From a virus (taxonomy: Duplodnaviria; Heunggongvirae; Uroviricota; Caudoviricetes), in IMG/VR virus record IMGVR_UViG_2531839662_000018, positions 1 through 12,903 of that record: a DNA stretch of 12,903 nucleotides; one strand, 5' to 3'. Shown in pieces: positions 1 through 12,903 of this stretch. Each line of letters starts with the position of its first letter. The stretch's first letter is position 1. Below the pieces are notes generated by a model. It saw only the letters and a list, made by a program, of their open reading frames with translations, was not told the origin of the DNA and searched no databases. A program made the translations under genes and the position numbers.

Positions 1-1242
1 ATGGCACGAAAAACCACCCCACTAACCATTACGGAGATCAAAAACGCACGACCAGGGGAAAAGGAATACACCCTGCAGGATGGTGGAGGATTATTTCTTC
101 TGGTGAAACCCTCCGGATCAAAAATCTGGCGTTTTACGTACTATCGCCCGGCAGATAAAAAACGGACTATCATCAGCCTCGGATCGCTGAATGATGTTTC
201 CCTGTCCGATGCCAGAGAACGACGGAATGAATACAGGTCACTCATAGCGAAGGGAGTTGACCCACAGGACCACGAACGCCGGAAACGTGAAGCAGAGAGT
301 CGGAAAAAGGGCAACACGTTCGAAAAAGTTGCCTCGGACTGGTACGAGATGAAAAAAGGCCAGAATCTGGCTTACAACACGATTAAGGATATCTGGCGAT
401 CCCTGGAAAAATACGTATTCCCGTACATCGGAAACACGCCAATAGATACCCTCACAGCTCGCCGCTTTGTTGAGATACTCACACCCATTAAAGCACGCGG
501 CAACCTGGAAACCCTGAAACGCGTTTTACAACGCATCAATGAAGTGATGGATTTTGCTGCCAACAGTGGGCTGATTGACATCAACACCGCCGCGAACGTC
601 CGCAAGGCATTCCCCTCACCCACCAAAAAGCACATGCCAACCATCCGACCGGAACAGCTACCGCAGCTAATGCACGATTTATCGGTCGCCAGCATAGAAC
701 GGCAAACCAGATTGCTGATTGAGTGGCAACTGCTGACCGTAGCACGCCCAGCCGAAGCAGCCGCCGCACGCTGGGAAGAAATAGATCTCGATGCCGAAAC
801 CTGGACGATTCCAGCCGGACGCATGAAGATGCGCCGTGACCATGTGATCCCTCTTTGCGGTCAGGCGATGGCTGTACTGGAAACAATGAAGCCAATCAGC
901 GCACACAGGGAACATGTTTTTCCCAGCCTTAAAAATCCAATGCTGCCAATGAGCAGCCAGACCGCTAACGCTGCATTGCGCCGGATGGGATACGCTGGTG
1001 TGCTGGTGTCTCACGGATTACGCGCCATATTCAGTACAGCAGCGAACGAGGAAGGATTCGAGCCGGACGTAATCGAGGCCGCACTCGCACACGTGGACAC
1101 GAACGAGGTAAGGCGAGCATATAACCGAAGTAACTACCTGGAAAAGCGCGTGGTGCTTATGCGCTGGTGGGGGGAATTTGTAGAGGCCGCAGCTACCGGA
1201 GTGACCATAGCCAGTGGTAAAAGGGGTATCCGTGCCGTGTAA
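1..1242 (+). CDS. int: P4-type tyrosine integrase/recombinase (413 aa)
   Basis: Full ORF from ATG at position 1. N-terminal arm-binding region with the DGGGL motif typical of P4-family integrases (KEYTLQDGGGLFLLVKPSGSKIWRFTYY). C-terminal catalytic region has HGLR, a later AHV, and the nucleophile Tyr in RRAYNRSNYLEKRVVLMRWW. Identified by eye from conserved motifs. Confidence 0.95.
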   Translation: MARKTTPLTITEIKNARPGEKEYTLQDGGGLFLLVKPSGSKIWRFTYYRPADKKRTIISLGSLNDVSLSDARERRNEYRSLIAKGVDPQDHERRKREAESRKKGNTFEKVASDWYEMKKGQNLAYNTIKDIWRSLEKYVFPYIGNTPIDTLTARRFVEILTPIKARGNLETLKRVLQRINEVMDFAANSGLIDINTAANVRKAFPSPTKKHMPTIRPEQLPQLMHDLSVASIERQTRLLIEWQLLTVARPAEAAAARWEEIDLDAETWTIPAGRMKMRRDHVIPLCGQAMAVLETMKPISAHREHVFPSLKNPMLPMSSQTANAALRRMGYAGVLVSHGLRAIFSTAANEEGFEPDVIEAALAHVDTNEVRRAYNRSNYLEKRVVLMRWWGEFVEAAATGVTIASGKRGIRAV

Positions 1243-1340
1243 CTGTACAAAAAGCCAGTGCAACCAGTGAAAACCATGCCAAACCATCGTATAATTGCCA
1301 CAAATTTAACGACAAGGCCGGAGTATATGAAAATTCTATT

Positions 1341-1571
1341 ATGCAAAATACCACCGCCTACGGCGAAGGCCTGCAACTGGCCTTAATGGCAAATCGTGAA
1401 TTCTGGTCAACGTACGATCCGGAAGACAAATCAACAGCCCCCACAAAACACGAGGTAGTCAGTTTTTTGCGCTCGCGTGGCGCATCGAAAAATCTGGCTG
1501 AAAGCATCGACAAGGTGCTGAGACCCACCAGCCTTAAATGCGGTGGACGACCTAAGAAGTGGAAGCGGTAA
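1341..1571 (+). CDS. hypothetical small protein (76 aa)
   Basis: Open frame between int and alpA with a protein-like, charged composition. Its stop is followed immediately by an intrinsic terminator. The ribosome-binding site is weak: the nearby GGAG (1319-1322) is better placed for a 19-codon ORF at 1327. A TATAAT hexamer lies at 1290-1295. Confidence 0.4.
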   Translation: MQNTTAYGEGLQLALMANREFWSTYDPEDKSTAPTKHEVVSFLRSRGASKNLAESIDKVLRPTSLKCGGRPKKWKR

Positions 1572-1576
1572 TCACA

Positions 1577-1607
1577 ATAGCGGCCCTTTGCGGTCGCTAT
1601 TTTTTTG
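1577..1607 (+). terminator. rho-independent terminator after the int / small-ORF unit
   Basis: A roughly 9-bp stem (ATAGCGGCC / GGTCGCTAT, one G.T pair) with a CTTTGC loop, followed directly by a T7 run (1600-1606). Confidence 0.6.
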
Positions 1608-1636
1608 CAAAAAGAAAAGCGTAATCAATGAGATAA

Positions 1637-1676
1637 AAAACAGTGGGTACCGTTTTAAAACGGTGGGTACTGTTTT
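1637..1676. promoter_or_regulatory. two tandem 20-bp near-palindromic sites upstream of alpA (candidate operator)
   Basis: AAAACAGTGGGTACCGTTTT (1637-1656) is followed directly by AAAACGGTGGGTACTGTTTT (1657-1676), 18/20 identical. In each unit the 8-bp arms are inverted repeats of one another. They lie about 65 bp upstream of the alpA start. Confidence 0.4.
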
Positions 1677-1741
1677 TCCCGCCCTGCCCTGTTTTACCGT
1701 ATTTATCACCGGAATACGCCGGATTAACGAGGTAAAACATA

Positions 1742-1948
1742 GTGGAAACAATCAGAAAAATCCTTACCCGTCAGGAAGTAAAAAATATTCTGCGCATCAA
1801 GGCAGACAGTTCGCTACAGGACATGATCAACGCCGGAAAATTCCCGAAAGGCTTCAAAATCGGTCTGCGTCGTGTTGGCTGGTATGAAGATGAGGTGCTG
1901 GCCTGGCTGAAAGAACGCGAGGAAGAAGCGCGCGGAACGGCTGCGTAA
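1742..1948 (+). CDS. alpA: AlpA-family (excisionase-like HTH) transcriptional regulator
   Basis: 68-codon ORF with a GTG start and a GAGGT Shine-Dalgarno about 10 nt upstream. The sequence fits the AlpA pattern (FPKGFKIGLRRVGWYEDEVLAWL), and int followed by alpA is the canonical order in these islands. Confidence 0.85.
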   Translation: METIRKILTRQEVKNILRIKADSSLQDMINAGKFPKGFKIGLRRVGWYEDEVLAWLKEREEEARGTAA

Positions 1949-1967
1949 TGGTGTGAGGCGTAACGCG

Positions 1968-2954
1968 ATGAACATAACAAAAAGCGCCCCGTTGCCGGAG
2001 CGCCTTTGTGAACGAATAGCCTACTGCGCCATATTGCTTACTGTCTACGAGGCAGATTATAGCGTTGTGGTCGCACAGAGTGAAGGCGCTGATCACCGTT
2101 ACTACAGCACGCCAGAAATGCAGAATATTTTGCTGCAAAATGCCGTTGGTCACGCCGTCCGGAAAGCAAAAAATTTTGCTGGTGGCGCGACTGATGCGAT
2201 TTTGTCAGGTCGCCAGGTGCTGATCAATCTGATGTCTGATTTCGTTCTGGATAAAACAAAGGCGACCGCAGAGAGCCGCCAGTGGAAAAGCTACATACTT
2301 GAACGCATCACCAACAATGCCACATTTGCGGCTGGTGGGCAAAGCGTAACCGGAAAAAAATTCCGGTGGGGCTATTCCTGCTCTTTGGCCTTGCGACGCT
2401 GGCGGTATTCAACTTCTCGCTTTAATGCTGCTGTTACAAACTGCCCTGTACTTTCACCAGGCATTTTTACCGCCTCAACATTGTTCATAACTTCATGCGG
2501 AACCCTTGCCGCAACTGTTTGTGATTTTGCGTTTACTGCTTTTGTTGCCATGTTGTGTACCCCTTACAAAAAACAAATGCAGTATGCAGGAAAAAAAATA
2601 AGTGTTCAACACTTGACGTGTTTAACACCAGGGCTTAAATTGGTGTTCAACACCTTACTGATGCAAGGTGCAGAAACGACGAAACCCGGCAGTGCGCTAA
2701 CACTAACCGGGCTTCTAACCACCAACGATAGAAAGCGTATCGAGGTAGCTATGAGAAATTATACCAGACACCCGCAAGGGCGGGACTCGTACAACCTGAA
2801 TAAATACATCTGGCGTTTTATCGCCCTGAGCACGGCACAACCGCGCGTGATTCACATCGTGGCCACCAGCGAACAGGAAGCACGCCAGCAATCCCCGGCT
2901 GGCTGCGTGATGGTATTCGCTGCCCGTATTCGCCAGGAGGTACGCCATGATTAA
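1968..2954 (+). CDS. long stop-free frame (328 aa from ATG 1968); probably a composite, not one protein
   Basis: The 5-prime 400 nt has a GAGG ribosome-binding site 9 nt upstream and coding-like, purine-rich first codon positions. The middle (2372-2654) reads as Cys/Ser/Thr/Phe-rich junk, is antisense to a well-formed RHH ORF, and contains three perfect palindromes plus a promoter. The 3-prime 204 nt (ATG 2751, GAGGT site) ends in an ATGATTAA overlap with the next gene. A gene finder would likely call the whole ORF; I consider that call doubtful. Confidence 0.3.
   Translation: MNITKSAPLPERLCERIAYCAILLTVYEADYSVVVAQSEGADHRYYSTPEMQNILLQNAVGHAVRKAKNFAGGATDAILSGRQVLINLMSDFVLDKTKATAESRQWKSYILERITNNATFAAGGQSVTGKKFRWGYSCSLALRRWRYSTSRFNAAVTNCPVLSPGIFTASTLFITSCGTLAATVCDFAFTAFVAMLCTPYKKQMQYAGKKISVQHLTCLTPGLKLVFNTLLMQGAETTKPGSALTLTGLLTTNDRKRIEVAMRNYTRHPQGRDSYNLNKYIWRFIALSTAQPRVIHIVATSEQEARQQSPAGCVMVFAARIRQEVRHD
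2372..2551 (-). CDS. ribbon-helix-helix (Arc/CopG-like) transcriptional repressor candidate, 59 aa
   Basis: Minus-strand ORF MATKAVNAKSQTVAARVPHEVMNNVEAVKMPGESTGQFVTAALKREVEYRQRRKAKEQE, below the ORF-track length cutoff. It has a beta-strand/helix/helix RHH pattern, an AAGGGG Shine-Dalgarno 8 nt upstream, and G/A-rich first codon positions, while the opposite strand looks antisense. It is transcribed divergently from the adjacent palindromic operators. Confidence 0.55.
   Translation of the reverse strand: MATKAVNAKSQTVAARVPHEVMNNVEAVKMPGESTGQFVTAALKREVEYRQRRKAKEQE
2601..2654 (+). promoter_or_regulatory. rightward sigma70-like promoter overlapped by three palindromic operators
   Basis: Palindromes AGTGTTCAACACT (2601-2613), GTGTTTAACAC (2618-2628) and GGTGTTCAACACC (2642-2654). 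Candidate -35 TTGACG (2613-2618) and -10 TTAAAT (2635-2640) with a 16-bp spacer. One operator sits just upstream of the -35, one in the spacer and one just after the -10. Confidence 0.55.
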
Positions 2955-3312
2955 CCTGTCAATTTCTGACCTTAACAGCATTCAGTTTGATGAGAAATTC
3001 ACCGGGCAGCTACTGGTTAACGTGGAGAATGGACGCGTGGCAAGTAATTATCACCTGCCGGATGGTGCAATTGCCGGAAGCGTTGAAGCATTGCTGGAGC
3101 TGGCAGAACGTGCGCGACTGATTAAGCCGTTAACGAGCCATCACGATGATGATCTGCATTTTACCGGACGCATGGTGAGTCACTACGAAAACGGCGTTGA
3201 AGTATCCCGAGAACGGCTGCGAGATGATTGCTGTTTCGGAACACTGCCGGAATTTATCGAATTGCTGACCAGTTGCGGTTATCAGGTTATTCAGGGGGTG
3301 AATCATGGATAA
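2947..3312 (+). CDS. hypothetical protein (121 aa); paralog of the next gene
   Basis: Strong AGGAGG Shine-Dalgarno 6 nt upstream. The start overlaps the upstream frame stop (ATGATTAA). Its N-terminal half resembles the downstream 66-aa protein. Confidence 0.75.
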   Translation: MINLSISDLNSIQFDEKFTGQLLVNVENGRVASNYHLPDGAIAGSVEALLELAERARLIKPLTSHHDDDLHFTGRMVSHYENGVEVSRERLRDDCCFGTLPEFIELLTSCGYQVIQGVNHG

Positions 3313-3505
3313 TCAGCAAGCAACAATGACAATTACCCTGAGTGTGCCAGATGATTTCACCGGACGCATACTGGTTTACCTGGATAAAGGGAAAGTGAAA
3401 TCACAATGCCGACTGAAAAGTAATGAGATTGTTGGTTCTCCTGAATTTTTTTCTGAACTCTGTATTCGTGCGGAAATAAAACCGGAACTGCTGACAGGAA
3501 AATAA
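3305..3505 (+). CDS. hypothetical small protein (66 aa); paralog of the N-terminal half of the previous gene
   Basis: Overlaps the previous gene by 8 nt, with a GGGGGTG ribosome-binding site. The two proteins share an alignable block (DDFTGRILVYLDKGKV ... IVGSPEFFSELCIRAEIKP versus DEKFTGQLLVNVENGRV ... IAGSVEALLELAERARLIKP). Confidence 0.7.
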   Translation: MDNQQATMTITLSVPDDFTGRILVYLDKGKVKSQCRLKSNEIVGSPEFFSELCIRAEIKPELLTGK

Positions 3506-3509
3506 AACC

Positions 3510-3809
3510 ATGAAAAAGAAAAATTCTGGCTTTACTGCCAGTGGTCTCCCTCGGCCTGAAATCCGCCCCGGCGATATTTTCCGGGATAACTACGGCGGCA
3601 CGGTAACGATTAAAAGTATTGCCGGACGGTGCGTTACTTACCGCCGTGATGGGTACAGCTACGACTGCGTGATGCCTGTTTATCAGTTCCGGCGTGATTT
3701 TTCACTGATACAGGCCACACCACGCAAACAGCCCACCAGCAACGCAAAGGCACGGGCAAATATTCAGAAAATGAAAAACATGATTAACGCATTCAGGGGC
3801 ACAAAATGA
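3510..3809 (+). CDS. hypothetical protein (99 aa)
   Basis: Tightly packed in the operon; its stop overlaps the next start (ATGA). No family recognised. Confidence 0.7.
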   Translation: MKKKNSGFTASGLPRPEIRPGDIFRDNYGGTVTIKSIAGRCVTYRRDGYSYDCVMPVYQFRRDFSLIQATPRKQPTSNAKARANIQKMKNMINAFRGTK

Positions 3810-5221
3810 AACTGGCACCGAACTTAAAAAAACAGCCACACGACAAAATGACCGAAGTCATTATTTTTGCGGGTAGTGATGCCTGGGCGCACGCGAAACA
3901 GTGGCAGGAGCAGGACGGGCGACTTGCTGGCGACAACGTGCCGCCTGTATGGCTGGGAGACAGCCAGCTTGACGAACTGGCAGACCTGAAAATTATCGAC
4001 GATGGTCGCTATTGTGTCCGGCTGTACAAGGCAGGCCACATCAAGCCGTCAAATATTAACGCCATCGGGCAAAAGCTGGCGGCGGCAGGTGTACGGGATG
4101 CGAATTATTACCCCGAGGGAATGCACAGCCAGAAACGCGAGGAGTGGCGCGAATATCTGGAACGAGAGCGCCAGAAAAGACTGTCCGGAGAGATACCAGA
4201 GGAAGAAAAAAACGACCAGCGAAAAACCACACTGCCAATGAGTATTGGATCTGCAGGGTACGACACACAGCTTGATTATGTCGTTAAGGGCGTGATTCCG
4301 GCTAATTCATTGTGCAGCACATACGGCGCGAGCGGTTCCTATAAATCGTTCCTCGCGTGTTCCTGGGCGTGTCATGTTGCCACGGGTCGCCACTGGGGAG
4401 GCCGCAGGGTGGCGCATGGTTCGGTGATGTATGTCGTCGGTGAAGGTGGCATTGGTGTCCCTCGTCGTATCAAAGCATGGGAAATCGTTAATGATGAACG
4501 GGTGAAAAATCTGTACCTGGTAAACCGCCCGATTTTTCCGGCGGTCCCGCTTGATGTTGATGAAATGGTCATCGCTTCCCGTCAGGTTGAACGGGAAACG
4601 GGTAAACCGGTACGCATGATTATTCTGGATACGCTGGCGCGTTGCTTTGGCGGTAATGATGAAAATGACGCGCGGGATATGGGGGCGTTTATCCGTGGAT
4701 GTGACGAACTGAAACGACGCACAGGGGCTACGGTACTGGTGGTTCACCATTCCGGCAAGGATGAAACAAAAGGGGCGCGTGGTTCCAGTGCATTTCGTGC
4801 ATCTCTGGACGCTGAATACCGTATTCGCCGTGAAGGTGCGGACAGTGAAGCCCTGGTTATCTCCTGCACCAAAATGAAGGACGCGGAGGAACTGAAAGAG
4901 GCTGCATATGATTTACGCGTGGTGGAGCTTTTTACCGACACTGACGGGGAGTTAATCACGTCGCTGGTGGTTGTGGATAAGCCGCGCCCACCTGTTGAAC
5001 TGGAACGCATCGAGGAGGCCGGGAACAAGACGGAAAATCACGCTGCGCTATGGCAGTGCATCAGAACGCGAACAGCACACGGGGAGGCGTGCACTATCGC
5101 CCTTCTCCGCGATGATATGAAAAAGCTGGGGTATGAAATGAAAAACTTCCGGCGCTGGCTGTACAAGCTGGAAAGCGACGGCGTAATCGCTATTGACGGT
5201 GATTATGTGCGCCCACTGTAA
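3806..5221 (+). CDS. replication protein with RepA-like RecA-fold helicase/ATPase domain (471 aa)
   Basis: P-loop-like YGASGSYKSF, Walker-B-like MIILDTLARCF and the LVVHHSGKD motif typical of RepA/AAA_25-type replicative ATPases. The N-terminal domain of about 160 aa is of unknown type. The gene is followed immediately by an iteron array. Confidence 0.85.
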   Translation: MKLAPNLKKQPHDKMTEVIIFAGSDAWAHAKQWQEQDGRLAGDNVPPVWLGDSQLDELADLKIIDDGRYCVRLYKAGHIKPSNINAIGQKLAAAGVRDANYYPEGMHSQKREEWREYLERERQKRLSGEIPEEEKNDQRKTTLPMSIGSAGYDTQLDYVVKGVIPANSLCSTYGASGSYKSFLACSWACHVATGRHWGGRRVAHGSVMYVVGEGGIGVPRRIKAWEIVNDERVKNLYLVNRPIFPAVPLDVDEMVIASRQVERETGKPVRMIILDTLARCFGGNDENDARDMGAFIRGCDELKRRTGATVLVVHHSGKDETKGARGSSAFRASLDAEYRIRREGADSEALVISCTKMKDAEELKEAAYDLRVVELFTDTDGELITSLVVVDKPRPPVELERIEEAGNKTENHAALWQCIRTRTAHGEACTIALLRDDMKKLGYEMKNFRRWLYKLESDGVIAIDGDYVRPL

Positions 5222-5612
5222 AAAGTGAGGAGCAAAAGTGAGGATGGCGGGTAATTTAACAAAAAATCAACGCCACTCCTCACTTTCTCACCTGTATATA
5301 GGTCAAAAAGTGAGGAATGAAAAACATATTGTAAAACAAGACATTACAACAACAAGAAAAACAGGTGAGGAGCAGGACGGGAATAACAAAAAGTGAGGAA
5401 CAAAAGTGAGGAATGGTGAGTTAATAGAAATGAGGTAATAAAAATAACAGGTAGGTTAAAAAACACACCATGCAAGATATTAACTAAAACTTAACTATTT
5501 ACCTCACTTTTGCGTATATATAAGGATTAAAAAGTGAGTACTTAAAAATACATTTAAAATCATATTGTTATTAACTTCATAAATTTTCACTGTGCAGCAG
5601 GTGAGGAATTAA
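5221..5612. repeat. iteron array / candidate replication origin
   Basis: At least nine copies of the core AAAGTGAGGA, with CAGGTGAGGA variants, in both orientations (for example 5221-5232, 5235-5245, 5278-5287 reversed, 5305-5319, 5361-5372, 5387-5399, 5402-5415, 5501-5510 reversed, 5598-5610). They are embedded in AT-rich DNA with no ORF, directly downstream of the rep gene. Confidence 0.75.
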
Positions 5613-5687
5613 AAAATCAGGAATGTTAAAAATGAAAACAGAATGTTGTGTCAGTGCCGTTGGGCAACGTAGCAATCAGTAAAAACG

Positions 5688-6230
5688 ATGGGGCAAAGCA
5701 TGACTAAGCTGACCATTAACAGAAAACCTAAAGGCATTTACGGCACGCCGCAGAAAACGACGCAGGCGGCGCAGGAGCAGGATAAAACCACGTCGGCGCA
5801 TAAAGTGATGCCCGGTAACCAGAAAGCGCAGCAGAAGCCCACAGGGGCGACACCGTGGCGGCATATGACCAAACGCCAGCGCAAAAACCGCAGGCGCGTT
5901 AACCGCCTTATCGAACTGTGGCCAGAATTATTCAGCCGGGAAGCACCGAAGCCGCTTAAGGTGGGGATATTTGACGACCTGATGCAGGATCTCGCCGTCA
6001 GGGGGCTGGCATTCGGGCCAGGGGCATTACGTGCGACGCTGGCATCTTATGCGCAGTGTCCGCGCTATTACCGCGCCTTAATGGCTGGTGGGGTACGCTA
6101 CGACCTGAAAGGCCAGCCGTGCGGCGAGGTGACACCACAGGAACAACAGGACGCAGAAACGCGGCTGGTGGCGCTGAATGAGAAGCGCAAACGTCAGCGC
6201 CGGGCAGCAAAGGAGAAAACAGGCGCATGA
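5688..6230 (+). CDS. ProQ/FinO-domain RNA-binding protein
   Basis: The central region (PLKVGIFDDLMQDLAVRGLAFGPGALRATLASYAQCPRYYRALMAGGVRYDLKGQPCGEV) matches, from memory, the conserved ProQ N-terminal/FinO domain. Basic Lys/Arg-rich N- and C-terminal tails. An alternative start at ATG 5700 has a better GGGG ribosome-binding site. Confidence 0.85.
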   Translation: MGQSMTKLTINRKPKGIYGTPQKTTQAAQEQDKTTSAHKVMPGNQKAQQKPTGATPWRHMTKRQRKNRRRVNRLIELWPELFSREAPKPLKVGIFDDLMQDLAVRGLAFGPGALRATLASYAQCPRYYRALMAGGVRYDLKGQPCGEVTPQEQQDAETRLVALNEKRKRQRRAAKEKTGA

Positions 6231-6514
6231 TTCACGACAGCAAAGCGGAAGCACTGGAAGCGCGTGGTCTGTACCGGAGAGCGGCGGCGCGGTGGGCTGA
6301 GGTCATCATGCTGGCGAATGATGACAAGGCACGGGAACAGGCGGCAAAACGTCGCGCGGAATGTATCCGCAAGGCAGCACGCCCACCAGCACGGCAGGAT
6401 AATTTCGGGGAGATGCGCGAAACCATCAGCCGGGCACATGCCGGGATGGGATTACATCAGCCCAATGGTAAGGCATTCAGGAAATACCCTGGATCGAAAA
6501 ATTGCAGTCAGTGA
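6227..6514 (+). CDS. PerC-like small transcriptional regulator candidate (95 aa)
   Basis: The start overlaps the previous stop (ATGA). The N-terminus (KAEALEARGLYRRAAARWAEV) resembles the conserved opening of PerC-family regulators, recalled from memory without alignment. Basic, Arg-rich protein. Confidence 0.6.
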   Translation: MIHDSKAEALEARGLYRRAAARWAEVIMLANDDKAREQAAKRRAECIRKAARPPARQDNFGEMRETISRAHAGMGLHQPNGKAFRKYPGSKNCSQ

Positions 6515-6519
6515 CGGAG

Positions 6520-6544
6520 GCCGGGATTTTTCCCGGCTTTTTTG
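6520..6544 (+). terminator. rho-independent terminator 1 after the ProQ/FinO-PerC unit
   Basis: 7-bp stem GCCGGGA / TCCCGGC with a TTTT loop, followed by TTTTTTG. Confidence 0.75.
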
Positions 6545-6555
6545 TGCCAGTAAAA

Positions 6556-6590
6556 AGCCCGCAGCCAGAAGTGTTGCGGGCTTTGTTTTT
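6556..6590 (+). terminator. rho-independent terminator 2 (tandem)
   Basis: 8-bp stem AGCCCGCA / TGCGGGCT with an 11-nt loop, followed by TTGTTTTT. Confidence 0.7.
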
Positions 6591-6715
6591 CAGGTGATTG
6601 AAGTCAATGGGAAGAACGCGATCATCATGCGTTATTGTTTCATAAATTGCAATGATGTAGATCGTCATTTCAGTTTGTGCAATCATAATCGTTGTTTTGT
6701 TCAGGAGATATGACT

Positions 6716-6889
6716 ATGAGAAAAGCCAGCGTGAAACCCGTTTTACTCGCTCGTGAGCAGATTGAAGCATTACAGCGCATCCAGGACGAGGAACGCCGCA
6801 ATTCTCCGCTGGGGATTGCTCCGAGCATTCATGAGGTCGCCCGGCGTTTAATGCAGCGGGCGCTTTATCCCGTAGAACGTCCGGCCTGA
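6716..6889 (+). CDS. hypothetical small protein (57 aa), first gene of the downstream operon
   Basis: ATG at 6716 with an AGGAG Shine-Dalgarno (6703-6707, 8-nt spacing). The ORF-track start at 6692 lacks a ribosome-binding site. An AT-rich promoter-like region lies at 6600-6700. Confidence 0.55.
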   Translation: MRKASVKPVLLAREQIEALQRIQDEERRNSPLGIAPSIHEVARRLMQRALYPVERPA

Positions 6890-6928
6890 TGGTCGTGATT
6901 TTTTGGTGAAAAAAGAGAGGTGGTAACA

Positions 6929-7513
6929 ATGCCAGCAAGCAAAGAAGATTTGCGATTAAAACTGATGGAGGTGGTTAACGCTCTGTCAGAGTCGCAGGGC
7001 AGCACTCCGCAGGAGATTATCGAAATTCTGAATGCGATCCCCGCACAGGATTTCACAAAAGCAGATGAGGACAACGCGAATCAAAACATCGTCGCGTCAG
7101 TCGAAGATGAATCCTCACTGGCAGAAGCCCAGGCTAAAGCAGATTCCGCATACAGCAATATGGGCCGTCGCGCTCCAGCCCCGTTTGCTGGTGAAAAGTC
7201 GATGGATTACCGCAAGCGTGCATTAATTGGTGCACAGAAGCTGGCTAAAAAATTCAGTGATGTGGATATTCGTTCCGTTTCAGATTCTGCAACGCTGGCG
7301 GTGCTGGAAGATCAGATTTACCAGGCTGCAAAAGACAGTGTTCAGTGGGCCGTGGAAAACACGCCGGGCCATTTGGGTAAAACCGTAAGAATGGATGAAG
7401 CTGGTCGTCGTATTACTGAATATCAGGGCGATCCGAACGTCTGGCTGAACGCCTTCAAAATCCCTCCCCGTCGCCTGGTCAAAATTAACACTGCAAGCCT
7501 CGCGGGGGCATGA
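6929..7513 (+). CDS. hypothetical protein (194 aa)
   Basis: ATG at 6929 with an AGAGAGG ribosome-binding site 8 nt upstream; the ORF-track start is a GTG at 6920. Acidic N-terminal half. No family recognised. Confidence 0.75.
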   Translation: MPASKEDLRLKLMEVVNALSESQGSTPQEIIEILNAIPAQDFTKADEDNANQNIVASVEDESSLAEAQAKADSAYSNMGRRAPAPFAGEKSMDYRKRALIGAQKLAKKFSDVDIRSVSDSATLAVLEDQIYQAAKDSVQWAVENTPGHLGKTVRMDEAGRRITEYQGDPNVWLNAFKIPPRRLVKINTASLAGA

Positions 7514-7577
7514 AAAACGTGCTGAGTTCAGCCCTGCCGGATTTGGCGGGGCTTATTGCTTATAACCGGATAACATT

Positions 7578-8249
7578 ATGCTTTTAACAGAAATTGAGGC
7601 GGCAAAGCAGATTCGGGACGGTCAGCTACCGTCGCCTTATCAGTTTTCCAACATGTGGCTGGTTAACCTGCGTATTACAGGAACCGGTATGGCCTACCGC
7701 GCCGAAGAAAAAGAATTTGTCTGGCGTTCACCGCAAACTTATCTCAATCCGCAGTTCCTGGAACGTTGCGCCGGAGTACCCGTCATTATCGACCATCCCG
7801 AAGGCAAAACCATTGAAGACGTTGGCGAACGGTCGCGCATTATTGGCACCGTCATGTTGCCGTATATTCGCGGTGACGAGGTGTGGGGTGTATGCCGGAT
7901 TTACGGGCAGGAAATCATCGATTACATCCAGAAAGCACGGGGGGAGGTATCCACCAGCCCGTCGGTTGTGTTTTGTGGTGCGTCCGGTGGGGCAGAAGTT
8001 CCTGATGTAATGGGCGAGGACAATTTTTTCATTGAGGGTACGCCATTCCTTATCGATCACGTTGCGCTCGTGCCGCTTGGTGTTTGGGATAAGGGCGGGA
8101 AACCATCGGGTGTGGAGGTAACAACGCCGACAGCAGAAGAACAGCTCGCCGGAATGGTCCGGGACGTTATTGATGCGGCCTGCAAGCCAGCCCTGGAAAA
8201 ACTGGAAGAAATATCCGGGCGGCTGGCTCAACTGGAAAAAACAGAGTGA
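7578..8249 (+). CDS. hypothetical protein (223 aa)
   Basis: Protein-like composition; only a weak ribosome-binding site. A faint resemblance to phage prohead-protease-like folds (PVIIDHPEG ... IGTV ... EVSTSPSV) is too weak to call. Confidence 0.75.
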   Translation: MLLTEIEAAKQIRDGQLPSPYQFSNMWLVNLRITGTGMAYRAEEKEFVWRSPQTYLNPQFLERCAGVPVIIDHPEGKTIEDVGERSRIIGTVMLPYIRGDEVWGVCRIYGQEIIDYIQKARGEVSTSPSVVFCGASGGAEVPDVMGEDNFFIEGTPFLIDHVALVPLGVWDKGGKPSGVEVTTPTAEEQLAGMVRDVIDAACKPALEKLEEISGRLAQLEKTE

Positions 8250-8256
8250 GTGAATC

Positions 8257-8874
8257 ATGAAAATTGCTAAAAACTTAAATCTGATTATCCCTGTGCGCAC
8301 TGAAAAGGGAAATGGCTGGATCCATGCCACGCCGATCAGCAAAGAGGTGTTTAAAGAGCATTTCTTCATCCTGAGTAAAACCTTTTCTGCCATTTTTTCT
8401 GAAGGTCTTGGTGTTGTTGCGGGTCCGCGCGTTGCCTGCCTTATGCTGGAGAAAATCTCCCGTGACTCCGGTTTATGGGATGGGGAGAAAGGCATACGTA
8501 ATACGCTCATAAACGAAATTATTCGCCTGGCAAACCTTGTTTATCCAGTGGAGGGCAAAGGCTACGACACAATCCCTCTCGATATGGCGCTGGAGCGTGA
8601 AATCGTTGATTTGGACGAAGTGGCGGGTGAACTTGTTTTTTTTACATGCGTCTCGTCGATAAATTCCCCGGAGCAGACGAAGGGGACTATGGATGCGGTG
8701 AATGGAATATGGAGCACTCAATGCTCGTCCTTGAGTCTTACGGAATGGATCGCTTCATTGCCGACATTGAAGCCTGCCGTCAGTTCTGGCGCGACGGCGA
8801 ACACGTCATCAGCGACATCCTCGACTACTCAGCCGGAGCCGGATTCAGAGACATCTGTGCAGATTCCGGTCTGA
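8257..8874 (+). CDS. hypothetical protein; zero-frame product 205 aa, candidate upstream partner of a -1 frameshift pair (G-like)
   Basis: The first 129 codons are protein-like. After the T8 run (8636-8643) the zero frame becomes Ser/Thr-rich low complexity until its stop at 8874, while the -1 frame carries a well-formed ORF. Confidence 0.6.
   Translation: MKIAKNLNLIIPVRTEKGNGWIHATPISKEVFKEHFFILSKTFSAIFSEGLGVVAGPRVACLMLEKISRDSGLWDGEKGIRNTLINEIIRLANLVYPVEGKGYDTIPLDMALEREIVDLDEVAGELVFFTCVSSINSPEQTKGTMDAVNGIWSTQCSSLSLTEWIASLPTLKPAVSSGATANTSSATSSTTQPEPDSETSVQIPV
8636..8643 (+). other. T8 homopolymer forming a U UUU UUU slippery heptamer (candidate -1 programmed frameshift site)
   Basis: Zero-frame codons GTT TTT TTT ACA. 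A -1 slip re-pairs both tRNAs on TTT and continues as TAC ATG into the frame of ORF 8646-8939. Confidence 0.4.
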
Positions 8875-8939
8875 ATGTAAAAACAGCAGCTCAGTTTCGT
8901 GAGCTGCTCAAATTCAAAAATCCCGCAGGAGTATTGTAA
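8646..8939 (+). CDS. -1 frame ORF (97 aa from its first ATG), probably the C-terminal extension of a frameshift fusion (GT-like)
   Basis: This frame opens at 8631 just before the slip site. Its stop overlaps the start of the 679-aa gene (TAATG). Protein-like composition (FIADIEACRQFWRDGEHVISDILDYSAGAGFRDICADSGLNVKTAAQFRELLKF). Internal ATGs at 8709 and 8721, the latter with a GGAG ribosome-binding site, allow independent initiation as an alternative. Confidence 0.5.
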   Translation: MRLVDKFPGADEGDYGCGEWNMEHSMLVLESYGMDRFIADIEACRQFWRDGEHVISDILDYSAGAGFRDICADSGLNVKTAAQFRELLKFKNPAGVL

Positions 8940-10978
8940 TGTCAGGTAATCAGATGCCAGTTCTAACGCTGGACGTTAATGAAGAACACCTCAAACGGCT
9001 TGAGGCAATTTTTGAAAAGTATCGCAACGGGCTGATGATCGGCCCTGCCGGAACGCCGATGAAAATACCGGGGCAAAGTGGGCGCAGCGTGGGGGCAGGC
9101 TTACCCGTGGCGGCAAAATCTGGTCGGACAGGACCGGATGTATCCGGGAGAGTGAGGGACGAAAAAGGGCGCTTTGTCGGCAGCGGAAAAACAGCAGATT
9201 CGTTCGTAAGCAACTATAAAGGTCGCGGCGAAACGATGTTTGATAAGTATCTCAGCGGGCTGGGGAAAAATGCCCAACAGACGCTGAAAACTTACAAGCA
9301 GATCAATTCTACACTACAGACGACCACTTCAAGATTAAACAACCTGTTTAAAACAACCGTATCGTGGGGAACAAAACTCTCGGTTATGGGCGTTGCCGGA
9401 CCGTTTGGCTTTGGCATGATGTCCCGTAGTGTTGTAGAGAAACAGAAAAATGCAGATGAGCTGGTGGCAACGCCAGGAGAGTTAAAGGCGGCAGAAAGCA
9501 CTTATTCGCCTTATTTTTCCGGTGTTGGCAATGTGCTCAATACACTGGCAGCAGCACAAAATGATATATCGCATCCTGCCCGCGTCGGCCTGCTTAATCT
9601 GGGGCTAAATCCTGATAAAAACGCGACTGAAAACCTGCCTGTATTCCTGAAAAAGGTTGCAGCGCTGGCAAAGGAATATCAGGGAACTGGTCTTACCCAG
9701 AGCAATTTCAGAGGAATGGGGCTTGGATGGGTAAATTTTGGTCTTACTAACCAGTTAGTCAAATATCAGGACAAAATACCTGAACTCAACAAAGAGTTTT
9801 CGTTACGTGCAGCGCAGAATGATTCGTTACTGACCTCTGCACATACAAGTAAATATCAGAATCTTACCAGTAACCTGGAAAAAAACTGGGATCGGCTTAC
9901 CAGCGGATTTCAGGGAGCAATGGCGGGGAATGAAGACGCTTTAATCAGAATGTCTGATGGTACCACGAATGCTGCCCTGAATTTCATGAATGGTGAGAAC
10001 TTTAAAAGGATTCTGACTGATGTTGAAACGGGGCTGGATAAACTTGGTAAGTACGTTAATGGCCCGGATTTTAATAACGACCTGAACAATTTTGCCGAAA
10101 ACGTTGCAAAGGTCACCAAGGCACTTAGCGGATTTGTTGGTTTTGCCGTTGAACATCCCTGGCTTTTTGGGGCCGCAGTGCTTGCGGGGCCATCAAGAGT
10201 TGGTGCCGTGGCAGCCACAACAACCGGAGTTGCCGCTCGTGTTGTCGGTGGAAGTCTTCTTGGGGCTACAGCCGGAACAGTAGCAGGATTGGCTATTCCT
10301 ACAAATAACACACCTACCACCAGTGAGGAAATGAAAGGGCTGGAGGGGCGTTTCAACTTTGATTATTTTAACGAAGTGCAGGAGTGGCAAAAAAACAATC
10401 CGGGTAAGGTCTGGCCTGGAGGATTGCAGGGATTTTCAAATCAAGTAAACAGATCTGCATATTTATCCAGAGGGATCAGGAATAACAATCCCGGAAATCT
10501 TAATTTCGCAGGACAAAAAGGGGCTACTCTGGAATCGGGGCCAAATGCCCGTTTTGCCAGCTTCCCGACGATGCTGGAAGGCATTGCCGCCTTAGATCGG
10601 CAGGTAATGCTATACCTGAAACGCGGCAAAAATACGATTGATCAGATTATTGATATTTATGCCCCTTCATCTGATGGAAATAACACATCGTCCTATAAAA
10701 GCTATCTTTCTCAGTACACCGGATTAGGTGTTAAGGAGAAAATTGATGGTTCTAATTTTGAGGTCATGAAAAAGCTAATTCAGGGCATTATTAACCATGA
10801 AAATGGTGCTGCCGCTAAAGCTGTAAGTGTTGAAGATGTGATCCGGGCGCTGGCTATGAATCGTGGGATTGTCCCTGCAGCAGGAAACAATGATCAGAAC
10901 GTTAAGTTGGAAATTGTTCGGAACGCTGGTGCCGATTACTTCGCGCAACTAATTGGTGCTCAACGGTTCCTGGGATGA
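8939..10978 (+). CDS. large protein (679 aa) with Gly/Ala-rich hydrophobic core; tape-measure-like candidate
   Basis: Strong AGGAG ribosome-binding site, coupled to the upstream ORF. An Asn/Thr/Gly-rich N-terminal 400 aa. A hydrophobic segment FAVEHPWLFGAAVLAGPSRVGAVAATTTGVAARVVGGSLLGATAGTVAGLAIP (nt about 10143-10300). A C-terminal domain of about 220 aa containing the motif RGIRNNNPGNL (nt about 10471-10503). Confidence 0.9.
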   Translation: MSGNQMPVLTLDVNEEHLKRLEAIFEKYRNGLMIGPAGTPMKIPGQSGRSVGAGLPVAAKSGRTGPDVSGRVRDEKGRFVGSGKTADSFVSNYKGRGETMFDKYLSGLGKNAQQTLKTYKQINSTLQTTTSRLNNLFKTTVSWGTKLSVMGVAGPFGFGMMSRSVVEKQKNADELVATPGELKAAESTYSPYFSGVGNVLNTLAAAQNDISHPARVGLLNLGLNPDKNATENLPVFLKKVAALAKEYQGTGLTQSNFRGMGLGWVNFGLTNQLVKYQDKIPELNKEFSLRAAQNDSLLTSAHTSKYQNLTSNLEKNWDRLTSGFQGAMAGNEDALIRMSDGTTNAALNFMNGENFKRILTDVETGLDKLGKYVNGPDFNNDLNNFAENVAKVTKALSGFVGFAVEHPWLFGAAVLAGPSRVGAVAATTTGVAARVVGGSLLGATAGTVAGLAIPTNNTPTTSEEMKGLEGRFNFDYFNEVQEWQKNNPGKVWPGGLQGFSNQVNRSAYLSRGIRNNNPGNLNFAGQKGATLESGPNARFASFPTMLEGIAALDRQVMLYLKRGKNTIDQIIDIYAPSSDGNNTSSYKSYLSQYTGLGVKEKIDGSNFEVMKKLIQGIINHENGAAAKAVSVEDVIRALAMNRGIVPAAGNNDQNVKLEIVRNAGADYFAQLIGAQRFLG

Positions 10979-11029
10979 TTTAAATACACGCGCTTTCCGG
11001 CGCATTAATACAGTCTGAGGGGAAGTGTC

Positions 11030-11554
11030 ATGTTTATGAGCAAGGCAGAATATGCCAAACACAAAGGCGTAAGCCGCCAGACAGTTTACGACTGGATCGA
11101 GAAAGGCGAAGTGGTCATGTCCGGTAAAAAAATCGATGTGGAAGCGACAGAGCAGCGGAACAGCCCACCAGCACAGGGAAAAGATACCGTTTCTGAAATG
11201 TGGCCAGAGAGAACGCTGGAAATGACGTGGGGCGAGTTCTGGAAAGCAGTTAAGGCCAGAGACGGTAAAATCCCTGCACCAGTAACGGACGATGACATAC
11301 AGCAGCGTGTGCAGGATGCAGCCGGGGAATTATGCTGTGAAGTGCAATTTCTTGATGATGGTGCTATCTGCCTTGAGGATTATGCTGGGCAATATTACTT
11401 TGAGCAGTATGATTTTCGGGAAAATGCCAGGCTGGCAATTCGTATGCTGCGTTGTGAGCTCTGCTATGTTGCAGGTGATTGTCCCGATGAGCTGGATAAC
11501 TGGAGTGAAGCCGGACTAAACGCCCTGGCTGAGTGGGAAAAATCATCCCATTAA
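11030..11554 (+). CDS. HTH DNA-binding protein (174 aa), excisionase/terminase-small-subunit-like N-terminal HTH with Cys-rich C-terminal domain
   Basis: GAGGGGAAG ribosome-binding site. The N-terminus (KAEYAKHKGVSRQTVYDWIEKGEV) is a classic HTH of the Xis/AlpA/TerS-Nu1 type. The C-terminal half has six Cys (CCEVQF ... CLEDY ... CELCYVAGDC). Confidence 0.8.
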   Translation: MFMSKAEYAKHKGVSRQTVYDWIEKGEVVMSGKKIDVEATEQRNSPPAQGKDTVSEMWPERTLEMTWGEFWKAVKARDGKIPAPVTDDDIQQRVQDAAGELCCEVQFLDDGAICLEDYAGQYYFEQYDFRENARLAIRMLRCELCYVAGDCPDELDNWSEAGLNALAEWEKSSH

Positions 11555-11565
11555 TGACCGTAAAA

Positions 11566-11857
11566 TTCGCGAAAAGTGTCAAGTCAGGCCGTCTGCCGGG
11601 TTGACACTTTACACTCTGAACGCGAAAAAGTGTCAACCTCGCTGTAAACCCCGCCGTTACTGGCTTTGCGCCAGATTTACCACGTCAAAAAGCCGAAAAA
11701 ATCGCGAAAAGTGTCAAGTTGCCATGCTTAGAAATGCTAAGGTTTGATAAGGTTTTTCGCGAAAAAGTGTCAAGTGTGTCAACCTGCGATGTTAAGGTTT
11801 GTTAAGGTCTTAAGCCGGAAAGTGTCAACCAGCCCCCTAAGATTTCCTAAGGTGTAA
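11566..11857. repeat. array of two interleaved short repeat families (candidate protein-binding or packaging/origin-like site)
   Basis: Family 1 is CGCGAAAAGTGTCAAG and variants (11566-11584, 11621-11638, 11702-11720, 11757-11784, 11817-11830, plus an inverted copy TTGACACTTT at 11601-11610). Family 2 is (C/T)TAAGGT(T/C)T in six copies (11738-11757, 11791-11814, 11836-11857). The region has no ORF. Confidence 0.7.
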
Positions 11858-11860
11858 ATC

Positions 11861-12040
11861 ATGACCATCACCGAAGCCGATATGCTGGAGATGATCCGCA
11901 GCATTGCCGGAATCAGACAACCAGCAAGCAAAATTAACAGGTGTTCAGCGCCTGTTTCCGTTGTGCTGCAACAGGAGCGCCACCAGCATGATGATGTGAG
12001 GCCGTATCAGTGGCGGAAACCGGACAGGCCGCGACGGTGA
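11861..12040 (+). CDS. short paralog (59 aa) of the terminal gene, with an internal deletion
   Basis: MTITEADMLEMIRSIAGIRQPASK ... RPYQWRKPDRPRR. Both ends are homologous to the 94-aa protein at 12619-12903 by eye at DNA and protein level, but about 40 central residues are missing. It has an AAGGTG ribosome-binding site and is below the ORF-track cutoff. Confidence 0.45.
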   Translation: MTITEADMLEMIRSIAGIRQPASKINRCSAPVSVVLQQERHQHDDVRPYQWRKPDRPRR

Positions 12041-12148
12041 GCGGAGCGTTCGGTAAGGCTACAGCCAAGCCTTACATTAAGCCTACGGGTAACCCTTCGA
12101 AGGGGCTTTAAAGGGGAGATGATTATCCTTACCCGTTGATAAACAAGC

Positions 12149-12168
12149 AAACCTCAAATTTGAGGTTT
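12149..12168. promoter_or_regulatory. perfect 20-bp palindrome AAACCTCAAATTTGAGGTTT (one of a pair)
   Basis: Perfect inverted repeat. A related copy AAACCTCGATTTGAGG lies at about 12349-12364, roughly 200 bp downstream. Confidence 0.4.
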
Positions 12169-12466
12169 GTATCTGCCTGACTTATTTTTGTGCTAAGTTG
12201 TTGATATATCCGACGACGCAAAATTGCGCTGGCTACATCCCTCACATCTGAGGACTGTTAACCAGCAGGCCGGAATATATTCACAAACTACGAAATTTTC
12301 GCAGTTTAATTACTCGCCAGCTTAATCGCTAACCCACTGATATTTTCGGAAACCTCGATTTGAGGAGACCGGAACGTCTACATGACTGCATCACCATAAC
12401 GATTTCCGTTACAGTTGATGTGCTTTTTTGCTGGTAAGGCCTAACCCGTTGATTCTTCCACAATTC

Positions 12467-12518
12467 CCCATTGGGGGAGGCTGGGCGGCCTGCTGTGGAC
12501 TTTTCCACCATTGGTGGG
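12467..12518. promoter_or_regulatory. pair of related palindromes upstream of the terminal gene (candidate operator)
   Basis: CCCCATTGGGG (12467-12477) and CCACCATTGGTGG (12506-12518) share the core CCATTGG, with centres 40 bp apart, about 100-150 bp upstream of the ATG at 12619. Confidence 0.4.
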
Positions 12519-12618
12519 AAACATGGCACCACATCCACCAGCTTAAACGCGCTTCACCTTCCCGTTATCAGTCGCCACAATTACGGCATTGTTTCCCCAT
12601 CCTCTGGAGGCCATGACA

Positions 12619-12903
12619 ATGACCGAAGCCGAAATGCTCAAAATGATTCGCCAGATTGCCGGGATCAGACCACCAGCAGGCAAACAGGAGGCCACGCAGC
12701 CGGACAGCGTGATAGCCGAAAATTACGCGCGTGTGGTGGCTGAGGTGATGCGCCGTGACGGTATCGAGCTTAACGGCGTTGATATGCGCGACATACGAAT
12801 CAGAGTTCTGGAGATGTTGTCATATCGTCGCCGCGTGGAGATGTACCGGGAGAGCGAGAAAAAGACTTACCAGTGGAAAAAACCGGAGCGGCTGCGTACG
12901 TAA
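12619..12903 (+). CDS. hypothetical small protein (94 aa)
   Basis: ATG at 12619 with a GGAGG Shine-Dalgarno at 8-nt spacing; the ORF-track starts at 12589 and 12613 lack a good ribosome-binding site. Highly charged, protein-like sequence (MTEAEMLKMIRQIAGIRPPAGKQ ... KTYQWKKPERLRT). The stop is the last codon of the window. Confidence 0.75.
   Translation: MTEAEMLKMIRQIAGIRPPAGKQEATQPDSVIAENYARVVAEVMRRDGIELNGVDMRDIRIRVLEMLSYRRRVEMYRESEKKTYQWKKPERLRT

Follow-up and report, generated by a model that had tools for sequence, protein, structure and literature searches.

The locus and its reading frames

The sequence considered here is a stretch of 12,903 nucleotides (nt) assigned to a tailed virus of the Caudoviricetes (IMG/VR record IMGVR_UViG_2531839662_000018, positions 1 to 12,903) and referred to below as the window. 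On its plus strand, which also carries the two neighbors of the gene, lies a gene named G (8257–8874), whose product of 205 amino acids (aa) is a putative tail assembly chaperone matching the family phrog_11810 over its full length (E 2e-87). A second coding segment, T, overlaps it in the -1 frame; it consists of 98 codons plus a stop (8643–8939), matches phrog_14324 (E 3e-60), and ends on the start of a gene for a tape-measure-like protein of 679 aa. The subject of this analysis is the junction between the two frames, a run of eight T residues (T8, 8636–8643). The original prediction for this DNA, made from the letters alone, had pointed to this run without identifying the gene as a tail assembly chaperone 5' of a tape-measure-like gene.

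In the zero frame, within the open reading frame (ORF) 8257–8874, the run is read as GTT (8635–8637) TTT TTT ACA. The seven nucleotides T TTT TTT at 8637–8643 form a heptamer of the X XXY YYZ type in zero-frame phase, with F128 and F129 as its P-site and A-site codons. The -1 frame is closed 7 nt 5' of the heptamer by a TGA codon (8628–8630; translation ...RSGG*TCFFYMRL...), and it can thus be entered only at the heptamer or later. From the heptamer it stays open up to a TAA (8937–8939), which overlaps the ATG (8939–8941) of the 679-aa gene in the sequence TAATG. The sequence, the ORF list and the translations therefore bear out the predicted slippery heptamer at the junction of two overlapping ORFs, and also the predicted coupling of the -1 frame to the next gene. 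It was likewise correct that nine Ts would yield a single ORF of 227 aa: in P0001 and L025, two natural variants with T9, the translation reads exactly ...VFFYMRL.... Runs of seven Ts are ordinary in the window (12 observed for 9.5 expected, and thus not over-represented), so that the significance of the site comes from its conservation and not from its occurrence.

Conservation of the heptamer

Homologous loci were collected in two ways. The first set comprises 77 loci retrieved with the N-terminal 129 residues of G (66–100% identity). T8 stands in the same phase in 73 of them, T TTT TTC is found in one, and T9 in two, one of these being on a contig with another frame disruption. The second set, 80 further loci with 33–100% identity, was retrieved via the motif of the T domain in the -1 frame, thus avoiding circularity. 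Here, T TTT TTT occurs at the expected place and in G-frame phase in 76 loci, including two in which the sequence is GCT TTT TTT, a run of only seven; T TTT TTC and C TTT TTT are found once each, and three loci are fused with T9. In all unfused loci of this set, the -1 frame opens only 15–48 nt 5' of the T-domain match. Comparing the T run across homologous loci, as the original prediction had suggested, thus shows that about 95% of the roughly 150 loci have T TTT TTY in phase, even at protein identities as low as 30–33%. The same heptamer is present in isolated myoviruses of Klebsiella, Yersinia, and Shewanella (30–35% identity), after ...VVFF or ...IVFF. In these three phages, it is followed by a -1 frame T domain whose end meets or overlaps the start of the tape-measure-like gene.

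Conservation extends to the nucleotide level. Among 35 non-redundant loci, the site codons are TTT TTT in 34 and TTT TTC in one, so that 69 of 70 Phe codons at the site are TTT, against 52% elsewhere in the same genes. The base directly preceding the two Phe codons, a third codon position, is a T in 34 of the 35 loci, for a baseline of 33%. Wobble bases around the site, by contrast, are free to change (CTT G, CTC G, CTG G, ATT G, TTA A). At the protein level, F128 and F129 are invariant in an alignment of 54 sequences with 31–44% identity.

The same boundary is visible in protein databases. A phmmer search with a natural fused variant against 1.84 billion representatives returned 626 relatives, the large majority of which have 186–205 aa and match the fused query only up to about residue 130, that is, up to the slip site; fused forms make up about 5% of them. 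A protein search with the conceptual fusion gave 431 relatives. Among the 120 matches listed, all but five have 205 aa, some of them seen on hundreds to a thousand contigs each, and the 205-aa form overall is found on thousands of contigs. Fused forms of 226–227 aa are represented among these 120 by four singletons only (P0001–P0004), which change frame at four places, one at the T run and the others later or as paired compensating shifts; such scattered changes point to sporadic indels. According to the original prediction, a programmed frameshift would be refuted if homologs encoded a single uninterrupted ORF. This holds for only about 3–5% of the sequences, which look like variants of the arrangement with two frames that have T9 or an indel. 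A coverage of 71% of the fused query by 205-aa homologs had first suggested other slip positions, and proved to be a local-alignment artefact once the sequences were read. Searches with the single distant proteins P0139 and P0169 gave no match in viral contigs, and the scan of genome contigs found one locus only.

Two frames under constraint and two predicted products

Beyond the heptamer, the zero frame and the -1 frame overlap over 77 zero-frame codons (231 nt, 8644–8874), for which codon-position entropies, ratios of nonsynonymous to synonymous substitution rates (dN/dS), and the translations in 40 distinct relatives were examined. Entropies and Nei-Gojobori dN/dS were computed on 51 distinct sequences, both frames being compared to a control frame. 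Upstream of the overlap (nt 1–378 of the gene), dN/dS is 0.12 in the zero frame and about 2 in the -1 frame, which there acts as a control, as well as in the control frame itself. In the first part of the overlap (nt 388–510), the values are 0.56 for the zero frame, 0.79 for the -1 frame, and 1.6 for the control. In the second part (nt 511–615), the order of the two frames is reversed, with 0.95 for the zero frame, 0.37 for the -1 frame, and 1.27 for the control. Finally, after the stop of G, the ratio is 0.94 in the zero frame and 0.28 in the -1 frame. Over the overlap, the zero frame, which encodes the G fold, is thus the more constrained in about the first 41 codons, and the -1 frame, which encodes the T domain, is constrained in the rest. 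By these measures, both frames code across the overlap, in a form of partitioned dual coding.

The T segment starts with a variable linker (about 8643–8726), followed by a conserved helical T domain (about 8727–8936) with the motif YG..F..D[IV][DE]..R[QE][FY]WRDG. The zero-frame continuation past the FF dipeptide has a median length of 59 residues in 127 representatives and the consensus T.xSxM...L....LWG...TSL..TE...SLPTST, in which W152, S167, and L168 are nearly invariant. An AlphaFold2 model of G, built from the 54-sequence alignment, has a mean predicted local distance difference test score (pLDDT) of 90 and a predicted template modelling score (pTM) of 0.80, and pLDDT exceeds 93 through about residue 170. 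In this model, a helix (residues 119–135) runs across the slip site and is followed by a second helix (138–152), a strand, and a third helix (161–167), whereas residues 171–205 are disordered. It had been claimed that past T8 the zero frame degenerates into low-complexity, Ser/Thr-rich sequence. As a description of the whole continuation, which had been judged not to be protein-like, this was wrong, since residues 130–170 are conserved among relatives of 31–44% identity and modelled with a pLDDT above 93; the Ser/Thr-rich character is confined to the disordered residues 171–205 or so. This tail (8767–8871) is rich in Ser, Thr, and Pro and has a family-conserved end, S-V/I-P-S/H, which here reads ...QIPV. 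The terminal motif could be a docking peptide.

As predicted from the two frames, G (205 aa) and the fusion GT (227 aa) are alternative C-terminal isoforms which have residues 1–129 in common. GT lacks the last 40 or so folded residues of G and its terminal motif, and has the linker and the helical T domain instead. The model of GT, obtained from a shallow alignment, is poor (pLDDT 64 overall and 40–64 in the T domain). For G, weak structural matches to viral proteins named tail assembly chaperone were obtained. Searches of G and GT against Pfam, NCBIfam, and PADLOC gave no match, and sequence-profile searches of the PDB found no relative of the chaperone family.

Proposed mechanism

T8 is very probably where a programmed -1 frameshift, by ribosomal slippage, gives rise to a tail assembly chaperone pair of the lambda G/GT type. 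The site with its phase and conservation, the constraint on both frames, and the order of genes in related phages are observed here, whereas the slipping itself, its efficiency, and the binding partners of the products are inferred. The majority of ribosomes would stay in the zero frame over 8257–8874 and produce G. A minority would slip one base back with UUU UUU (8638–8643) in the P and A sites, both tRNA-Phe re-pairing perfectly on U UUU UU. Reading would then resume in the -1 frame with TAC ATG CGT... and end at the TAA at 8937–8939, giving GT with the junction ...GELVFF-YMRLV.... The predicted tryptic junction peptide of GT is EIVDLDEVAGELVFFYMR, and its counterpart in G is EIVDLDEVAGELVFFTCVSSINSPEQTK. 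If the pair works as in lambda, the N-terminal part common to both products would coat the tape-measure-like protein from the gene directly downstream, the tail tube protein would be brought in by the T domain, and the G:GT ratio would be set by slip efficiency.

An RNA stimulator is apparently not needed. The original prediction had proposed to look for a downstream stem-loop or pseudoknot, and RNA folding revealed none: for the 64–97 nt 3' of the heptamer, folding was no better than that of shuffled sequences (z +0.45 and -0.28), and RNAalifold predicted no conserved pair downstream in 33 diverse loci. In E. coli, U UUU UUU promotes shifting only moderately (PMC5009743), which fits the low GT:G ratio that systems of this type need. 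On the upstream side, the sequence GGGTGA at 8625–8630, 6 nt 5' of the heptamer (GGNGA in the family, at 6–8 nt and encoding a conserved Gly-Glu), could pair with the anti-Shine-Dalgarno sequence of 16S rRNA, as in dnaX. This motif is accounted for by the protein sequence and its spacing is shorter than the dnaX optimum, and no stimulator is claimed.

Alternative explanations

The best surviving alternative, although an unlikely one, is transcriptional slippage, in which RNA polymerase would add one U on T8/A8 and the resulting U9 mRNA would encode the same 227-aa GT. Indeed, the product of a U9 transcript is identical to that of a -1 ribosomal slip, as illustrated by the ...VFFYMRL... of T9 DNA variants, and most enterobacterial loci have T8 and not T7. 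Such slippage is known from homopolymers with a length of at least about 9, as in Thermus dnaX (A9) and Shigella mxiE (T9). For bacterial RNA polymerase, it is documented on stretches of 9 A or T (PMC5009743), whereas the tract here has 8. Moreover, the conserved unit is the in-phase heptamer and not the run length, since the arrangement is also kept where the sequence is GCT TTT TTT or T TTT TTC. FF is preceded, in 57 of 131 representatives (44%), by T, A, C, S or a similar residue, and with the codons of these residues the run cannot be longer than 7. Finally, transcriptional slippage needs no strict codon phase, yet the phase is strictly conserved. These comparisons favour ribosomal -1 slippage, and transcriptional slippage would contribute at most a minor part.

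It is less probable still that the locus harbors two separate genes, with a -1 ORF of 97 codons initiated independently at the ATG at 8646. Such an ATG does lie just 3' of the T run, and PHROGs keeps phrog_14324 as a separate family. However, no Shine-Dalgarno sequence is found at a usable distance (GGGTGA ends 15 nt 5' of the ATG), and the start codon is not conserved, relatives having ACTTGC, ACCTGT, ACATCA, or ACGTCA. The -1 part of phage Chronis does not contain any Met. Independent initiation would also leave the conservation of the heptamer at the nucleotide level without reason.

The original prediction had placed two further options beside a programmed -1 frameshift, namely a phase-variable tract and an error in the assembly. 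Of its three options, the comparative evidence strongly supports the first, and neither of the others agrees with a heptamer fixed in about 95% of loci. A contingency homopolymer that toggles between two products by replication slippage appears very remote: T8 is a mononucleotide run inside a coding region and T9 alleles do occur, but the tract is essentially monomorphic, with T8 or an in-phase T7 in about 95% of both sets of loci, a handful of T9, and no T10. Furthermore, of the four contigs with a disrupted or fused frame, three either are singletons or seem to be full of errors, and known systems need both products together. As for a sequencing or assembly error hiding a true T9 and a single 227-aa protein, homopolymers are error-prone and rare fused ORFs exist (P0001–P0004, L025, L105, L161), but its probability is negligible given that T8 is identical across independent complete genomes and metagenome contigs, that the fused forms are singletons with frame changes at different places against a 205-aa form present on thousands of contigs, and that a conserved, folded zero-frame continuation would be meaningless if never translated.

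Comparison with known frameshifting systems

Chaperone pairs of the G/GT type are produced at a fixed low GT:G ratio, with G binding the tape measure protein, T binding the tube protein, and neither being present in virions. The conservation of G/GT frameshifting in long-tailed phages is well established (PMC5009743, citing Levin 1993; Xu 2004, 2013, 2014). Lambda gpG/gpGT (Levin, Hendrix & Casjens 1993; Xu, Hendrix & Duda 2004, 2013, 2014; summarised in PMC5009743) resembles the present pair in several respects: two overlapping ORFs directly precede the tape-measure gene, slipping by -1 on a heptamer of the X XXY YYZ type yields a minor fusion protein with a common N-terminal part, no downstream RNA stimulator is evident, and the arrangement is kept despite sequence divergence. 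As expected for this type, the second of the two overlapping ORFs is read here in the -1 frame and has no conserved initiation signals of its own. A number of differences can also be noted. The heptamer is T TTT TTT here and G GGA AAG in lambda, there is no detectable sequence similarity and no significant structural similarity to gpG/gpGT, and the relatives of the present pair are contractile-tailed phages, unlike lambda. One feature weighs against assignment to the lambda type: whereas lambda slips near the 3' end of G, the slip here falls at codon 129 of 205, inside a predicted helix. In consequence, G keeps about 76 residues which are absent from GT, 40 of them folded and the rest disordered with the conserved terminal motif, again unlike lambda.

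The gpE/gpE+E' pair of phage P2 is comparable in other ways, as P2 has a contractile tail, the pair lies between the tube and tape-measure genes, and the -1 shift takes place on a T-rich heptamer. The P2 heptamer is T TTT TTG. In P2-like phages, frameshift efficiency is higher (PMC5009743). The present proteins differ from those of P2 in giving no Pfam match to the P2 GpE families, in being much larger (205/227 aa), and in their long dual-coding overlap. Outside phages, dnaX of E. coli, which encodes gamma and tau, also relies on a -1 tandem slip on a homopolymer-like heptamer that gives two products with a common N-terminus. In dnaX, the heptamer A AAA AAG has a Shine-Dalgarno-like element on its 5' side and a hairpin on its 3' side, and frameshifting is about 50% efficient. 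By contrast, no conserved hairpin was found here.

The mechanism is therefore a textbook one in a previously unannotated family, slightly atypical in its slip in the middle of a domain, with a long dual-coding overlap and, in the case of the copy on a satellite-like island (see below), an unusual genomic host. The gene is called a hypothetical protein in 14 of 14 GenBank phages and in the annotation of hundreds of E. coli and Salmonella prophages by the Prokaryotic Genome Annotation Pipeline (PGAP). The analysis corrects this annotation in that the 64-nt 'intergenic gap' 5' of the tape-measure-like gene is predicted to be coding, GT being absent from every record. It also defines a chaperone family, with 626 cluster representatives, which has no relative in Pfam, NCBIfam, or the PDB, and provides a clean natural case of partitioned dual coding, the constrained segment of each frame falling where the other frame is tolerant.

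Genomic setting

Directly downstream of GT, and translationally coupled to its end, the gene for the tape-measure-like protein (8939–10978) encodes 679 aa with a lytic C-terminal domain and matches phrog_7694 (E 7e-290). Residues 466–637 match PHROG tail and endolysin/transglycosylase families, and PGAP names near-identical copies 'lytic transglycosylase domain-containing protein'; the Pfam SLT domain was not detected in this protein at E<=0.01. Residues 1–443 have 50% identity to their counterpart in phage Rac-SA53, a protein encoded where the tape-measure gene is expected; the first 40 residues are identical, and the C-terminal lytic region differs. Upstream of G lies a DUF2213 fragment resembling a head maturation protease (7578–8249), identified by Pfam DUF2213 (E 3.7e-6), by a match to positions 115–329 of phrog_6216, and by its PGAP annotation. 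The neighboring ORF 6920–7513 matches positions 402–545 of the same family, which has 545 positions, and the order of the two ORFs is thus permuted; variants of this ORF are annotated as NUDIX hydrolase in other strains.

The G gene and the start of the 679-aa gene have 85–87% DNA identity to phages Rac-SA53 and vB_Apl-pPE4. In both phages, a tail sheath gene (phrog_205, E 2e-54) is followed, in this order, by a 147-aa gene, the G gene, a gene for a 657-aa SLT-domain protein, three genes, and a baseplate hub gene (phrog_196). Klebsiella phage Chronis, Yersinia phage vB_YenM_21.09, and Shewanella phage QDWS have the same order. This order places G at the position of a chaperone pair before the tape-measure gene. 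The phage relatives show this arrangement in full and the window its downstream half only, as the DUF2213 fragment occupies, on the upstream side, the place that the tube gene has in the relatives. In these phages, the 147-aa gene at that place (L002 5561–6004 and equivalents) belongs to phrog_6566 and gave no match in Pfam or NCBIfam, and the sheath gene matches its PHROG only. The whole tail module of this myovirus group is poorly annotated.

The window itself is 100% identical to positions 2651638–2664540 of the chromosome of E. coli UMNF18 (NZ_AGTD01000001.1), where, with tRNA-Pro/yejM on one side and yejO on the other, it represents an integrative island of about 13.5 kb. This island encodes an integrase, a small helix-turn-helix (HTH) regulator, an Icd-like protein, a DUF4222 protein, a RepA-family helicase, ProQ/FinO, and PerC, in addition to the DUF2213 protein, the 205-aa and 679-aa proteins, and a weak TerS/excisionase-like HTH protein. 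Judged from this gene make-up, it is PICI-like, that is, it resembles a satellite of the phage-inducible chromosomal island (PICI) type rather than a phage. Satellites of this type are islands of 10–15 kb beside a tRNA gene which encode an integrase, a small regulator, a primase or helicase, and a protein related to packaging, and which lack a complete virion module.

The island copy

The island-typical junction between DUF2213 and G was found in 15 of 5426 complete E. coli genomes, at 91–100% identity and mostly in porcine enterotoxigenic E. coli (ETEC) and in Shiga toxin-producing E. coli (STEC), whereas in about 80 other E. coli genomes the gene has a prophage context. T8 is kept between island variants. 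Where divergence sufficed for an estimate, dN/dS among the island genes is 0.08–0.09 for the N-terminus of G, 0.10–0.31 for the tape-measure-like gene, and 0.09–0.14 for DUF2213; for the T segment it is 0.66 or not estimable. On these ratios, the island genes are under purifying selection.

A literature search found no description of the chaperone family, nor of satellites encoding tape-measure or chaperone genes. With both a chaperone and a tape-measure-like gene, the satellite-like island points to a route, open to testing, by which satellites may interact with the tail assembly of their helpers. In a tentative scenario, which is possible but on balance doubtful, a PICI-like E. coli satellite would have its own G/GT and tape-measure-like module under purifying selection and may use it to re-model or poison the assembly of the contractile tail of its helper. 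As a separate point, the frameshift would not lengthen G; in GT, the T domain would take the place of a folded subdomain at the C-terminus and of a conserved terminal peptide, via a dual-coding overlap of 177–231 nt conserved across phages of Gammaproteobacteria. A second copy of the chaperone gene is present in UMNF18 (NZ_AGTD01000001.1) outside the island, and some ETEC genomes have up to 5 copies. The second UMNF18 copy marks a candidate helper prophage.

The GenBank records OK094664.1 (Shewanella phage vB_Sb_QDWS) and OP650936.1 ('Hujiaoplasma phage zrk29-1') both have 47,902 bp and give identical match statistics. In all probability, they are a single sequence that was submitted twice, with widely different host names. 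Likewise, 'Actinobacillus phage vB_Apl-pPE4' has 87% DNA identity to E. coli prophages.
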